A DNA stretch of 62,481 bases, counting the filler, from Anaerolineae bacterium (GTDB taxonomy: Bacteria; Chloroflexota; Anaerolineae; Epilineales; Epilineaceae), in NCBI GenBank assembly GCA_029262755.1. It is 6 parts of 6 records of this genome, joined end to end, with 100 filler letters (N's around TTAATTAATTAA, not from the genome) between each part and the next. Parts side by side here need not be neighbours in the genome. Positions count along the whole stretch, not along the records: positions 28,940 to 33,572 come from JAJCYU010000086.1; 5 more parts are not named here. One strand, 5' to 3'. The notes beneath the pieces are model-generated. The model did not search any database, was not told where the DNA came from, and was given only the letters and a program-made list of their open reading frames with translations. Positions 28,840 through 44,503 of the stretch are shown piece after piece. Within the stretch, counting starts at the first letter, position 1; every line of letters starts with the position of its first letter. A program made the translations under genes and the position numbers.

Positions 28840-28939
28840 NNNNNNNNNNNNNNNNNNNNNNNNNNNNNNNNNNNNNNNNNNNNTTAATTAATTAANNNNN
28901 NNNNNNNNNNNNNNNNNNNNNNNNNNNNNNNNNNNNNNN
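28840..28939. other. Artificial contig spacer
   Basis: N44-TTAATTAATTAA-N44; the genes on both sides are truncated. Confidence 0.99.
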
Positions 28940-29253
28940 AGATCTGGTTTCTCTGCCGTCAGTACGACGCGGCGCAGGCCCTGGAGATGGGGCTCGTCAA
29001 CACCGTGGTGCCGCTGGACGAGCTGGAGGCCACAACCGTGGGTTGGTGCCGCGAGATGCTGGCGCTCTCCCCGCTCGCCCTGCGCTTCATCAAGATGGGC
29101 ATGAACGCGGAGCTGGACGGCCAAGCGGGCCTGCAGCAGTTCGCGGGCGACGCCACGTTGCTCTACTACATGACCGAAGAGGGTACGGAGGGCAAGAAGG
29201 CCTTCTTGGAGAAGCGCAAGCCCGACTTCGACCGGTTCCCACGCTTTCCGTAG
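28940..29253 (+). CDS. menB: 1,4-dihydroxy-2-naphthoyl-CoA synthase, C-terminal fragment
   Basis: [24 protein letters not shown]...[34 protein letters not shown]. Confidence 0.95.
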
Positions 29254-29402
29254 CCATACAGGGCGTTCGCTACGGAGCGGTCGTTAGTTGCAGTCCGCTG
29301 ACGCACGGTCGCAGTTCTCTGATCTCGCATCTCGCAGACCAAGGTTCGCAGCACCACCGCTCTGTCCGCGATACGACGATTCCGTTCGCGAATCCACACG
29401 CT

Positions 29403-29504
29403 CGACCGCCGTAGTTTCGTCCCGACCGCCACAGTCCGTCACGACCGAGCTGTTCCGTCCCGACCGCCAGAGTCCGTCACGACCGGATGGTTCCGTCCCG
29501 ACCG
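29403..29504 (+). repeat. Tandem array with 19-bp period, core TYCGTCMCGACCG (5 copies plus one partial)
   Basis: Cores start at 29416, 29435, 29454, 29473 and 29492, separated by variable 6-nt linkers. The alternating C/A gives a 38-bp superperiod. Confidence 0.9.
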
Positions 29505-29583
29505 TTGCCCTGGCGTCCATACCGACAGATTGCTTTGCTGAACAAGCAACCACCGTTCGTCACCGTCGCGCCAAGGACGTCCC

Positions 29584-30552
29584 ATGTTGCGAGCATGGTG
29601 GCTGGCCAGCCGCCCCAAAACCCTATCGGCATCCGCGGCGCCCGTCGCGGTGGGCGCGGCCCTCGCGGCCGCGGCTCAGGCCAACCTCGGTATCGAGGTC
29701 TTCGCGGGTGACGTCGCGCTGGCCGCGCTCCTCGGCGCGCTGCTGATCCAGATCGGCACGAACTTCGCCAACGATGTCCTCGACTTTCGCAAGGGCGCGG
29801 ACACGGCGGAGCGTCTCGGCCCGGTTCGTGTCACGCAAGCGGGCTTGCTCACGCCACGGGCTGTGACGATCGGCACGGCCGTCGCGTTTGCGCTGGCCTC
29901 CGTGGTCGGCATCTACATCGTGTTTCGCGCGGGCTGGCCAGGCGGAGCACCGATTCTGATCCTCGGTGTTGTTGCGATTCTCTCCGGCATCGCCTATACG
30001 GCCGGCCCCTACCCGTTGGCCTATGTGGGGTTAGGCGACTTGTTCGTGTTGATCTTCTTCGGCGTCGCGGCCGTGGCCGGCACGTACTACGCCCAAGTAG
30101 AAGCCCAGACCGTGGCCTTGGCCAGCACCATCGGTCTGAGCTGGATGCCACGGGCGATCGCACTCGGCATTTCCGTGGGCGCGTTGTCCATGGCCATCCT
30201 CAACGTCAACAACCTACGTGACCGCGTGGGCGACGCCGCCGTCGGCAAGCGCACGATGGCCGTCCGCCTAGGTGCGGACCGGACCCGCGTGTACTACGAA
30301 GCGCTGATCTTCCTGGCCTTCGCGATTCCCGTCGGCCTCGTCGCCTTCGGCTGGCTCGGGCCTGCCACGCTCATCGTGCTCGGCGCCGTACCGCTGGCCC
30401 TCGAACCGGCCCGCCACGTACGCACCGGACGGGAAGGCCGCGACCTGAACCCGGTTCTGGCCGCAACGGCCCGTCTTCAGATGGCCCACGCGGCATTGCT
30501 GGCCGTCGGGCTCCTGATCGACGCCTTCGCGATGTCGCGGATCGGTGGCTGA
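29584..30552 (+). CDS. menA: 1,4-dihydroxy-2-naphthoate polyprenyltransferase
   Basis: [46 protein letters not shown] and NNLRD...D...[10 protein letters not shown]. Confidence 0.96.
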
Positions 30553-31723
30553 GCCCGACCGCGTGCGCGGTCCCGAGCACTGGCCTCCGCGCGTGCGCGT
30601 CACGGCCTTCGACCTACCCTTCGCCCGCCCCTTCACCACCGCCTCCGGTGTGTACACCCGGCGGCGAGGCTGGCTTGTGCGTATCGGCGATGCATCCTCG
30701 CCCCCGGTCGGCTACGGGGAGGCGGCGCCGCTACCGGGCCACGGAGGCGAACCCCTTGCGGACGTGCGCCCTGCCATCGCCGCCCTGGCACGGATTCTCG
30801 CCGCCGCACCGCCTCCTGGCGATGACTCGCGCGAAGCACTCACATCCCTCGCGGCCGAGCTGAGCGCCGCCGTCCCCCACGCACCGTGTGCCGTCGCGGC
30901 CGTCGTCACCGCGCTCGCCGATCGCGCGGCGCGCCGGAGCGGGCTGCCCCTCGCGCGTTGGCTGGACGCATCGGCGACGGCCGGTGTCGACGTGAACGCG
31001 ACGATCGGCGCGGTGCCGCCGGCGGAGGCCGCTGAACGTGCCCGCGCCGCTGTCGCGGCGGGCTTCCGCACCCTCAAGCTCAAGATGGGCGACGGACCCG
31101 TAGACATCGCGCGAGCCCGCGCCGTTCGCGCTGCCGTGGGCCCCACGGTGCGCCTACGCGGTGACGCGAACGGCGGGTGGAGCGAGGACAGCGCGCGCTG
31201 CAAGCTCGCCGCCCTTGCGCCGCTCGACCTCGCCTTCGTCGAGCAACCGACCGCCGCCTCCGACGTCGCGGCGCTCGCACGCCTGCATGCATGGTCGCCG
31301 GTCCCGATCGCAGCGGACGAAGCTCTCCTGCCGCCGCTCGGCCCGGGCGCGGAAGCGCTGCTCCAGACGCAGGCCGCGAGCGTGTGGGTCCTGAAGCCGG
31401 CCCTGCTCGGCGGGCCGTTCGTCGCGATGGACCTGGCCCAACGTGCGGCGGCGGCCGGCATCGAGGTCGTGATCACGACGGCGCTCGACGCAGCGGTCGG
31501 ACGGCGCATGGCGATGCATGTCGCGTCCGCGATTACAGGTCGCCGCCACGCGGACGGACTGGCCACGGCCGGGTTCCTGGCCGAAGATGTGGGTCCGGAC
31601 ACGCCGATAGAAGCGGGGCGGGTGCACGTCTTCGACCTTGGCCTTGCCGACGATGCCGATGGCTGCTTCCACGGCCTCGGCTCCGTACCGGCCGTGGCGA
31701 TCGATCGGTGGGAGGCACCATGA
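30545..31723 (+). CDS. menC: o-succinylbenzoate synthase (enolase superfamily)
   Basis: GEAAPLPG, KLKMG, RGDANGGW, FVEQP, IAADEA and VLKP; located in the men cluster. Confidence 0.9.
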   Translation: MAEPDRVRGPEHWPPRVRVTAFDLPFARPFTTASGVYTRRRGWLVRIGDASSPPVGYGEAAPLPGHGGEPLADVRPAIAALARILAAAPPPGDDSREALTSLAAELSAAVPHAPCAVAAVVTALADRAARRSGLPLARWLDASATAGVDVNATIGAVPPAEAAERARAAVAAGFRTLKLKMGDGPVDIARARAVRAAVGPTVRLRGDANGGWSEDSARCKLAALAPLDLAFVEQPTAASDVAALARLHAWSPVPIAADEALLPPLGPGAEALLQTQAASVWVLKPALLGGPFVAMDLAQRAAAAGIEVVITTALDAAVGRRMAMHVASAITGRRHADGLATAGFLAEDVGPDTPIEAGRVHVFDLGLADDADGCFHGLGSVPAVAIDRWEAP

Positions 31724-32271
31724 GCAAGCGCGCGCCGCAGCGGGACGTCGACATCCTGGATGCCACGCTCGGACCGGAGCAGCTGCTCGTCCTCTACGAC
31801 GGTACCTGAGGCGTGTGCTCCGACTCGGCTCGTCGGATGGCACGTTGGGATCGACGTGCACGGATCTGTTGGCTTCCATCGAAGAAGCCGGGCCTTGCCG
31901 AGGCGGCCGGCCTGAGCCGCGCACAGCTCGACGCCGCCTTGTGGGCCGTCACACCGGCCGGCCGGCAGCTTCGCGGCGCGGGCGGTGTCCTGGCCGCATT
32001 CGATGCCGCCGCCCTCGGCGATCGCCGGATCGCGCGGACGGTCTACGCCATTCCGGGCCTCCGCAGCGCCTTCGACGCCGGCTATGCGCTCTTCGCGCGC
32101 CACCGCGGGCGCTTCGGCGGAACGGCCGCATGCAGCCTTCGATCGCCGGCCCCCTTGGACGATTCATCCGTTGCCGAGCTCGCACGGCGGCGGGCTGTGG
32201 CGCGCGGAGAGCTCCACGTAGGCGAAGGAATCAGCGACGCGGATTCCGCCGATCGAGCGGACCTCGCGTGA
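31720..32271 (+). CDS. DCC1-like (DUF393) thiol-disulfide oxidoreductase with in-frame TGA at codon 30; probable selenoprotein of 183 aa
   Basis: GGAGG SD and ATG overlapping the menC stop (ATGA). Reads LLVLYDGT[TGA 31807-31809]GVCSDSARRMARWDRRARI...GRQLRGAGGV...GYALFARHRGRFG, matching the family pattern YDGxCxxC...D...Y...ARxR. Confidence 0.82.
31815..31843 (+). promoter_or_regulatory. Candidate bacterial SECIS hairpin
   Basis: GTGC-TCCGAC-[TCGGCTC]-GTCGGA-TG-GCAC begins 6 nt after the UGA. The G-containing apical loop starts 16 nt downstream of the UGA. Confidence 0.55.
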
Positions 32272-32308
32272 TGCGCGCGCGGATCGAGGCGGCGCGTGGA
32301 GGCCCCCC

Positions 32309-33572
32309 GTGAGCGCGCACGAGCACGGTGCGCATGACCGGGCGGACCGACCGTCCGATTGGATCGCGTTGCCGCTACCGGCCCGCGCAGTACAAAACCC
32401 CGAAGGCATCGCGCTCGTCACCCACGACACGACGTGGACGTGGGCAGCGCTCTCAGCAAAGGCGCACGCGCTCGCTGCTCGATTCGCGGCGCTCGGCGCC
32501 GCTCCGGAATCGGCCGTCGCGGCGCTGTTGCCCAACGGCGCGGCCTTCGTTGCGCTGGTCCACGCCTGCGCTGCGCGCAACGCGGTCTTCGTCCCGCTCA
32601 ACACGCGCCTGACGCCGGCCGAGCTGAACGGCCCGCTGACGGACACGGCCCCGGGTATCCTCGTCGCCGATCGACAATACGCGGACGTCGTGGACCTGCT
32701 ATCGCTGCCGGCCGCGTGTCACGTCCTTTGGTCCGACGGCGCTGGGGTCGTGGAGCCGGCATCCCCTGCCGAACCGCGCGTGCCTCCCGCCAATTCCGCT
32801 ACGCTGCCTACCGGCCGCGAGTCGGTGCCGTCCGCCTCCGCACAGGTGATCATCCACACATCGGGCTCCACCGGCCGCCCCAAGGGAGCGATCCTGACGT
32901 GGGGCAACCAGGCGTGGAGCGCGGCCGGCTCCGCCATACGCCTTGGCACCCAGCCCGACGACCGATGGCTGGCCGTCATGCCGCTGTTTCACGTCGGCGG
33001 GCTGGCGATCCTACTACGCGCGGCTTGGTCGGGGGCCGCCGTCGTCGTCCATGACGGTTTCGACGCCCAGGCCGTGTGGCGCTCGCTGCAGCAGGACCGG
33101 ATCCGTCTCGTATCGCTCGTCCCCACGATGCTGGAGCGGTTGCTGGACGTCGCGGACGGGGCTCCGCCGCCGGATACCTTGCGGGCCGTGCTTCTCGGCG
33201 GCGGCCCCATGGCGATGCCGCTGCTTGCCAGGGCCGTCGCGGCCGGATGGCCGATCCATCCCACCTACGGCCTGACCGAGGCCTGCAGTCAGGTCGCTAC
33301 CGCCGCCCCTGGATGGCGGCCGTCGGACGGCCTTGCGGTCCCTCCCCTGCCGTTCACAGAGATCCGGATCGTCGACGAGCGCGGTGTGCCCGTGCCGACG
33401 GGGAGCGAGGGCGTTGTCGAGGTACGTGGCCCCACGGTATTCGCCGGCTACGTGGCCGGCGAAAGCGGGACGTCGATCAAAGGCCGTGATGAACGGCAGC
33501 CATGGCTGCACACGGGCGACCACGGTCAACTCGACGTGCGCGGCCGTCTATCCGTGATCGGGCGTCGCACCG
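32309..33572 (+). CDS. menE: o-succinylbenzoate-CoA ligase, C-terminally truncated
   Basis: AMP-binding motif HTSGSTGRPKG, MPLFHVGGL, SLVPTML, LLGGG, TYGLTEACSQ and WLHTGD.G. Confidence 0.93.
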
Positions 33573-33672
33573 NNNNNNNNNNNNNNNNNNNNNNNNNNNN
33601 NNNNNNNNNNNNNNNNTTAATTAATTAANNNNNNNNNNNNNNNNNNNNNNNNNNNNNNNNNNNNNNNNNNNN
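33573..33672. other. Artificial contig spacer
   Basis: N-run containing TTAATTAATTAA. Confidence 0.99.
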
Positions 33673-33698
33673 CTCCGCTCTGTAGATGGTGGTTTGGC

Positions 33699-44403: not shown

Positions 44404-44503
44404 NNNNNNNNNNNNNNNNNNNNNNNNNNNNNNNNNNNNNNNNNNNNTTAATTAATTAANNNNNNNNNNNNNNNNNNNNNNNNNNNNNNNNNNNNNNNNN
44501 NNN
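44404..44503. other. Artificial contig spacer
   Basis: N-run containing TTAATTAATTAA. Confidence 0.99.

Follow-up and report, generated by a model that had tools for sequence, protein, structure and literature searches.

Why should a menaquinone operon contain a gene for a putative thioredoxin-like redox protein that is interrupted by an in-frame UGA codon? The question is raised by a contig of an Anaerolineae bacterium (assembly GCA_029262755.1, source genome G000), in which a DCC1-like (DUF393) gene lies between the genes for menC and menE. The contig, G000:C86, has a length of 4633 bp and occupies positions 28940-33572 of the window, which is the whole stretch of DNA that was analyzed (62,481 nucleotides, filler included). 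We propose that the DCC protein is co-produced with the men enzymes and supports menaquinone synthesis as an accessory selenol/thiol reductant, and we assign to this reading a probability of about 0.47. It rests on the very probable insertion of selenocysteine (Sec) at the redox site of the protein, on the persistence of the DCC-menE gene pair in close relatives, and on the presence of related DCC genes within or beside the genes of a second menaquinone pathway. The features of the contig, and of the window around it, are as follows.

28942..29253, + strand: menB (1,4-dihydroxy-2-naphthoyl-CoA synthase), a 3′ fragment truncated at the contig start; identified with NF005637.
29584..30552, + strand: menA (dihydroxynaphthoate polyprenyltransferase); identified with NF004751, TIGR00751, and the UbiA Pfam family.
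30545..31723, + strand: probable menC (o-succinylbenzoate synthase, OSBS); identified with MR_MLE_C and by a position that is kept in the men operons of relatives.
31720..32271, + strand: DCC1-like (DUF393) gene of 183 codons with a predicted thioredoxin-like fold, UxxC form; identified with PF04134, by read-through translation, and by orthologs.
31807..31809, + strand: in-frame UGA, predicted to encode Sec at the first Cys of the DxxCxxC motif; from the alternation of TGA with Cys codons in orthologs and from the Sec machinery.
31820..31836, + strand: candidate Sec insertion sequence (SECIS) hairpin with a 5-bp stem and a 7-nt loop (CCGAC-UCGGCUC-GUCGG); from the consensus fold of five UxxC orthologs.
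32298..32302, + strand: ribosome-binding site of menE, GGAGG, 6 nt 5′ of the GTG; read from the sequence.
32309..33572, + strand: menE (o-succinylbenzoate-CoA ligase), with a GTG start and cut by the contig end; identified with TIGR01923.
28840-28939, 33573-33673, and near 44448, 51585, and 59384: spacers, N runs around TTAATTAATTAA.

The window consists of separate contigs joined through five N...TTAATTAATTAA...N spacers. These joins are artificial, and therefore no feature can be read across them. The gene order is thus known within the contig alone, where both menB and menE are cut at the contig ends. All five genes, menB-menA-menC-DCC-menE, are on the + strand. The menB fragment matches NF005637 with an E-value of 5.8e-51 and 173.5 bits over profile positions 171-273 of 273, the last 103 of the model. 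The menA protein scores 289.3 bits against NF004751 (cut-off 264) and 193 bits against TIGR00751 (cut-off 102), and it also matches UbiA. The start of menC overlaps the end of menA by 8 nt. The menC product belongs to the enolase superfamily (MR_MLE_C, 123.3 bits), and its best NCBIfam names are all OSBS, each below the cut-off (NF002782, 123 versus 288 bits; TIGR01927, 118 versus 130.6 bits). The truncated menE scores 235 bits against TIGR01923, under the cut-off of 330.15, because the contig end truncates the gene; the full-length ortholog from genome G003 is above it with 357.4 bits. The ATG of the DCC gene (31720-31722) overlaps the TGA of menC (31721-31723) in the sequence ATGA, and a GGGAGG precedes this ATG by 4 nt. 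The DCC gene ends with a TGA at 32269-32271, and 37 nt separate it from the GTG of menE. The gene order, the ATGA overlap, and the 37-nt gap given in the preliminary description are thus all correct. From this layout, the DCC gene is probably translated together with the men operon.

The DCC protein matches PF04134 with 53.1 bits (cut-off 27.8) over residues 24-134, corresponding to profile positions 1-112 of 113. When the frame is translated with TGA as U, the redox site reads LLVLYDGT-U-GV-C, and the UGA therefore stands where DxxCxxC has its first Cys, giving a UxxC site. The UGA is codon 30 of 183, and the D and G of the motif, together with both redox positions, are invariant across 21 relatives. 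Among the seven orthologs found in the family, the same codon is TGA in five (G000, G001, G002, G010, and G011) and TGT or TGC in two (G003 and G012). A chance UGA is ruled out because of this alternation and because the flanks are conserved on both sides. The machinery for Sec insertion was found in G000 with all scores above the respective cut-offs: tRNA-Sec at 70.3 bits (cut-off 47), selA at 507.7 bits, selB at 344.5 bits, and selD at 368.1 bits. The candidate SECIS hairpin begins 10 nt 3′ of the UGA. Across the five UxxC orthologs, pairing holds in 88% of the aligned cells, versus 8-44% when the partners are slid, and compensatory changes occur at three of the five pairs. The score of the hairpin was matched by 36 of 500 shuffles, with five sequences from a coding region as input, and the support that it lends to Sec insertion is modest. 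On these sequence grounds the DCC gene is very probably a genuine selenoprotein gene. The PF04134 match, the UxxC read-through, and the Sec machinery agree with the earlier claim that a Sec-codon DCC/DUF393 redox gene is packed into the men operon. The selD gene of G000 (G000:C109:4931-5866, locus L017) carries one in-frame TGA of its own, and therefore the selenophosphate synthetase is probably also a selenoprotein in this genome.

The use of Sec at this site varies across relatives. Families of the same order other than that of G000 contain a UxxU form, in which two UGAs lie 9 nt apart and are followed by a conserved 6-bp hairpin. CxxU and CxxC forms are found as well in the wider class. Across the phylum, the DCC genes include all four redox pairs, with switches inside single clades; examples are CxxU in L162, L163, L169, L180, and L218, UxxC in L164, L166, L182, and L230, and UxxU in L193, L208, L209, L213, and L234. 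In a DCC tree of 46 chosen rows the sequences cluster according to the family of the organism, and several clades contain Sec/Cys switches. The CxxC, UxxC, CxxU, and UxxU proteins constitute a natural variant series of one redox site, which should be useful for asking why cells choose selenium.

The family survey covered 17 genomes. A DCC ortholog is present in seven of these (G000, G001, G002, G003, G010, G011, and G012), and menE directly follows the DCC gene in all but G012, where DCC lies at one contig end and menE at the end of another contig. The survey of neighborhoods called for in the preliminary description thus finds the DCC-menE pair in every DCC-bearing genome of the family, six directly and the seventh split. 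The gene upstream of DCC differs: menC in G000 and G010, and 3-deoxy-D-arabino-heptulosonate 7-phosphate (DAHP) synthase in G001, G003, G011, and G012. The full order in G010 is menD-menB-menA-menC-DCC-menE, with a stop-start overlap of menC and DCC (GTGA/TGATG). In G003 the overlap (GTGA) is between the stop of DCC and the start of menE. Across the orthologs, DCC and menE are separated by between -4 and about 269 nt. An selA gene above the cut-off was found in 15 of the 17 genomes, so that Cys forms of the DCC protein occur alongside the Sec machinery. In the C-terminal domain of MenE (alignment A4, columns 546-547) we observed a Cys-Cys pair in DCC-bearing genomes and Ser/Ala-Cys in six of six genomes that lack DCC. 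Downstream of menE in G003 (L043:6198-6857) is an open reading frame (ORF) that matches only the C-terminal part of iodothyronine deiodinase (positions 131-233), with a short ORF directly upstream of it. By its sequence, this locus may be another selenoprotein gene that is split by an in-frame TGA.

Beyond the family, 401 genomes of the class were searched with the DCC protein, and 32 had a match at E ≤ 1e-10. The neighborhoods inspected were the loci of the order and 20 further loci of the class. The classical and futalosine pathways to menaquinone have no common enzymes before the dihydroxynaphthoate stage, and DCC genes are found with both. In genome G290 a fragment of mqnE (TIGR03700), a DCC gene of the CxxU form, an MqnA/D-family gene (PF02621, 212.6 bits), and mqnC (TIGR03699, 434.6 bits, cut-off 428.1) follow one another on one strand, and the stop of DCC overlaps the next ATG. 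After mqnC come a deaminase-family gene, an MtnA-like gene, and a DAHP synthase. Genome G082, from a second genus of the same family as G290, has the same order, mqnE-DCC-mqnA/D-mqnC. In G388 a UxxC DCC gene is arranged tail-to-tail with menA (NF004750, 366.2 bits, cut-off 346). In all four genomes of genus g16 of family f5, a UxxU DCC gene is directly upstream of a UbiD-family gene, which passes the TIGR03701 model "menaquinone biosynthesis decarboxylase" (SCO4490-type) with 617-620 bits (cut-off 495.9). The three DCC clades of these menaquinone contexts are separate on the tree, each with good support (98/97, 99/97, and 100/99). In the clade of family f53, three of three sampled genomes are menaquinone-linked, in two different arrangements. 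The proposal in the preliminary description of a role with naphthoquinones, 1,4-dihydroxynaphthoate, or the quinone pool would fit these DCC genes beside or inside other menaquinone gene sets.

How strong is this link? Among the closest relatives in the class, about 14 lineage-level contexts were counted, and in 4 of these DCC has a menaquinone gene as its direct neighbor. These contexts were chosen by similarity to the query DCC protein and not by context. For this set alone, and assuming that chance alone gives roughly 0.5-1% per context, the binomial P is approximately 6e-7 to 9e-6. All of the P values given here are crude estimates from contexts that are not fully independent, with detection by tblastn using queries derived from the class. 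A wider sample gives a different picture, and several results weigh against a role in menaquinone synthesis. The 80 Cys-form DCC loci collected from many phyla gave no convincing match to men, mqn, UbiD, or DAHP synthase genes within 6 kb. A phylum sample of 60 loci took one or two from each genus, and a single locus is menaquinone-linked, that of G082, from the same class. The sample was drawn from 122 DCC-positive genomes among 401 genomes of the phylum, a count that includes one unpublished genome left out of use. Altogether, no menaquinone link was seen for about 135 further DCC loci, which come from other phyla and from the remainder of this phylum. When about 154 contexts are pooled, the rough binomial P weakens to 0.008-0.07, and for the two cases in which DCC is located inside an operon the pooled P is 0.016-0.06. 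Within the family itself, DCC is absent from 10 of the 17 genomes, including six of six with at least 90% completeness. The four genomes of genus g8 have an intact menA-menC-menE operon in which menC adjoins menE with no room for DCC. No PF02621 match and no menB above the cut-off were found in the four g16 genomes that carry the UbiD-family arrangement. The same order also has unrelated contexts, with IlvE, a 2-hydroxyacid dehydrogenase, or an unknown 290-aa protein as the neighbor. Among 50 longer proteins that contain a DCC domain, the fusion partner is MBOAT_2 in 36, DUF2071 in 4, HTTM in 3, and other domains or none in 7; most fusions are thus to MBOAT_2, and quinone enzymes are not the majority partner. 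Residues 8-106 of the model of the G003 ortholog (pLDDT 85.6) best resemble thioredoxin and GST N-domains, weakly (Z 4-5.4), and a Foldseek search with this model returned no matches at E ≤ 0.001. The menaquinone link is real, yet it is confined to some lineages, and it is general neither across the family (10 of 17 genomes without DCC) nor in the wider samples (0 of 80 and 1 of 60 loci linked). Since several relatives manage without it, the DCC protein is dispensable.

Whether the DCC protein works with menaquinone synthesis, or with a quinone at all, is on our estimate an even question. If it does, the protein would be co-produced with the men enzymes and would act as a two-electron selenol/thiol reductant that is accessory to the pathway. 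Its target would be the head group, 1,4-dihydroxynaphthoate or naphthoquinol, which is readily oxidized, or else thiols that this head group has damaged. The protein could keep 1,4-dihydroxynaphthoate intermediates or demethylmenaquinol reduced, or it could reverse the oxidation or arylation of thiols by the quinone, and Sec at the position of Cys may tune its reactivity. Because DCC genes occur with two pathways that have no common enzymes up to dihydroxynaphthoate, the target would be sought in the common chemistry and not in MenE itself. That the reductant acts on this dihydroxynaphthoate/naphthoquinol chemistry in particular is a narrower proposition, suggested by gene context, and it is unlikely when taken alone. 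If the broader reading is true, it hints at an accessory redox step in menaquinone synthesis that is missing from the textbook pathways.

The DCC gene may instead have no functional link to its neighbors and be a general-purpose redox gene that became a passenger in the men operon of one family, the other menaquinone neighbors being coincidental. The 10 family genomes without DCC, some of them with menA-menC-menE operons, the wide variation of DCC contexts, and the scarcity of linked loci outside the close relatives (0 of 80 and 1 of 60, pooled P 0.008-0.07) are all compatible with this account. It has more difficulty with the persistence of the DCC-menE pair when the upstream gene is exchanged between menC and DAHP synthase, with the placement of DCC between genes of two nonhomologous menaquinone pathways with overlapping stop and start codons, and with the f53 clade, in which all three sampled genomes are linked in two arrangements. 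We consider a passenger doubtful, though credible. A closer tie to one enzyme is improbable on the same body of data. The DCC protein would in this case reduce or guard cysteines of the o-succinylbenzoate-CoA ligase that is encoded downstream, and menE is indeed the sole constant neighbor of DCC in the family, with the DCC stop overlapping the menE start in G003. The MenE Cys-Cys pair was found in five of the six DCC-bearing genomes with data (and in G005, for which the DCC status is undecided) versus none of the six genomes without DCC, and a review (PMC7598583), in the portion available, describes the reduction of a specific client protein by Arabidopsis DCC1. The Cys-Cys pattern, however, is confounded by ancestry and may be a clade marker, with G002 as an exception, and MenE is missing where DCC occurs in a futalosine operon, beside menA, or beside the decarboxylase gene.

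The UGA itself gives rise to two further alternatives. It was speculated in the preliminary description that the early UGA makes the expression of menE, and with it menaquinone synthesis, dependent on selenium through premature termination. A failure of Sec insertion at codon 30 would leave approximately 460 nt untranslated, and Rho is present (603.5 bits), so that polarity is possible in principle. A consensus scan of the contig for promoters and terminators gave no sigma-70-like and no terminator-like sites, which would agree with polarity, although such a scan is weak and uninformative for a GC-rich host. Against polarity, menE has its own GGAGG ribosome-binding site, the DCC-menE gap is variable, and the layout persists in G003 and G012, which have a Cys codon, in a family where selA is widespread. 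The UGA is not a conserved regulatory switch, and we regard control of menE by selenium as highly improbable. It is barely credible that translation truly stops at the TGA, or that the TGA is an error, and that the gene proper is the shorter ORF annotated by gene callers, with its start at the GTG at 31813. The public protein sets do carry truncated forms only (144 aa for contig G000:C86, and 119 and 130 aa for relatives). The truncated form, however, is without the DxxCxxC motif that defines the family, whereas the sequence 5′ of the TGA is conserved (LLVLYDGT), a Cys occupies the same position in orthologs, four other genomes have a TGA there, and G000 has the Sec machinery. Gene callers truncate the Sec forms of DCC genes. 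Among these accounts, the accessory selenol/thiol reductant made with the men enzymes is the reading that we prefer.

Other observations concern the surroundings of DCC genes. In both genera of f5, a conserved protein of approximately 280-300 aa is encoded directly upstream of the UxxU DCC gene irrespective of the gene downstream (L050:7180-8076 and L053:7185-8021, with homologs in L030-L038, L049, L051, L052, L059, and L060). This protein, the 290-aa neighbor mentioned above, is a candidate for the true partner of DCC in f5. It gave no Pfam or NCBIfam match, and a search of the atlas returned hypothetical Chloroflexota clusters only. In two lineages of the class (L159:4477-5271 and L160:2903-3796) a NapC/NirT-type multiheme cytochrome and a NuoB-like subunit are found beside DCC on the opposite strand; both are quinone-handling proteins. 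An HTTM protein (vitamin-K-dependent carboxylase domain) adjoins DCC in 4 of the 80 loci (L068:681-1694, L089, L090, and L139), and the HTTM-DCC fusions are proteins P0042, P0046, and P0047. The accessible part of a preprint describes an HTTM-DCC protein, the predicted complex of which is likened to the human carboxylase.

Two candidate links were rejected. An enolase-superfamily gene lies upstream of DCC in six Dehalococcoidia/Tepidiformaceae-titled loci, and a link to menC was dropped because the three that were scanned (L097, L100, and L120) score best as acid-sugar dehydratases and not as OSBS. For the class IV aminotransferases beside UxxU DCC genes, an identity as aminodeoxychorismate lyases was dropped because the one that was scanned passes a branched-chain aminotransferase model. 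On the contig itself, the 330-nt spacer between menB and menA contains a tandem array of approximately five 19-nt units (GTyCCGTCmCGACCG...; window 29400-29510) with no inverted repeats, which may serve for protein binding or may be a small repeat element. An Rfam search of the contig gave no matches at E ≤ 1.

The DCC/DUF393 family is widespread, and to our knowledge no function has been established for it in bacteria. Bacillus subtilis YuxK, a member whose name also appears in source annotations, gave no paper on its function among the literature matches listed. Our literature search found nothing on the DCC family with selenocysteine or selenoproteins, or on PF04134, and the portions of the DUF393 literature available gave nothing relevant to bacteria. 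The DCC protein itself matches none of the NCBIfam models, and a profile search against the sequences of solved structures gave no matches at E ≤ 1. The available main text of two selenoproteome reviews (PMC13188914 and PMC9312934) does not contain PF04134, DCC, or DUF393, although their supplementary tables may list the family. In a plastoglobule study, as far as its accessible text goes, a DUF393 protein is among the plastoglobule proteins.

With the DCC1-like family (PF04134, Arabidopsis DCC1), the G000 protein shares the Pfam match and the location of the DxxCxxC motif, and its N-terminal half may also be thioredoxin-like. It differs in that the first redox Cys is predicted to be Sec, and in that its C-terminal tail is specific to its clade, where other DCC clades end in PYCxxHPxxC. 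Its gene lies in a menaquinone operon, whereas the plant protein reduces a complex I subunit, according to the available sections of the same review (PMC7598583). The predicted UxxU selenoproteins of the same order have in common with it the family, the position of the motif, and a candidate hairpin after the UGA, but in G000 Sec would replace the first Cys only. The UxxC thioredoxin-fold selenoproteins that are catalogued in the accessible text of the selenoproteome reviews (thioredoxin, glutaredoxin, Prx-like, and others; PMC13188914 and PMC9312934) similarly have Sec for the N-terminal Cys of CxxC, together with Cys homologs.

A more distant analogy may be drawn with VKOR and DsbB. These CxxC enzymes exchange electrons with naphthoquinones and are membrane helix bundles. 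The likeness would lie in the reduction of a naphthoquinone by a dithiol, or by a selenol-thiol pair in the DCC protein, and the pairing of DCC with the vitamin-K carboxylase-like HTTM would parallel that of VKOR with its carboxylase. The DCC protein has no sequence or fold relation to VKOR or DsbB and is predicted to be soluble, so that the resemblance is one of possible mechanism and not of family. In an extended form of this idea, the DCC family would consist of soluble VKOR-like reductases of naphthoquinones (vitamin K or menaquinone), and some Chloroflexota would have recruited UxxC, CxxU, and UxxU versions into both types of operon for a common redox-maintenance step. We think this extension unlikely as it stands. 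The occurrence of DCC members in two unrelated menaquinone pathways nevertheless turns naphthoquinone redox chemistry into a hypothesis for the family that can be assayed.

Classical men operons are of the menFDHBCE type. The G000 operon resembles them in the clustering of menB, menA, the probable menC, and menE on one strand with overlaps or short gaps, and it differs in having an extra redox gene between menC and menE, which the operon of genus g8 is without. The new element is the placement of a DCC gene inside the menaquinone operons of both pathways.

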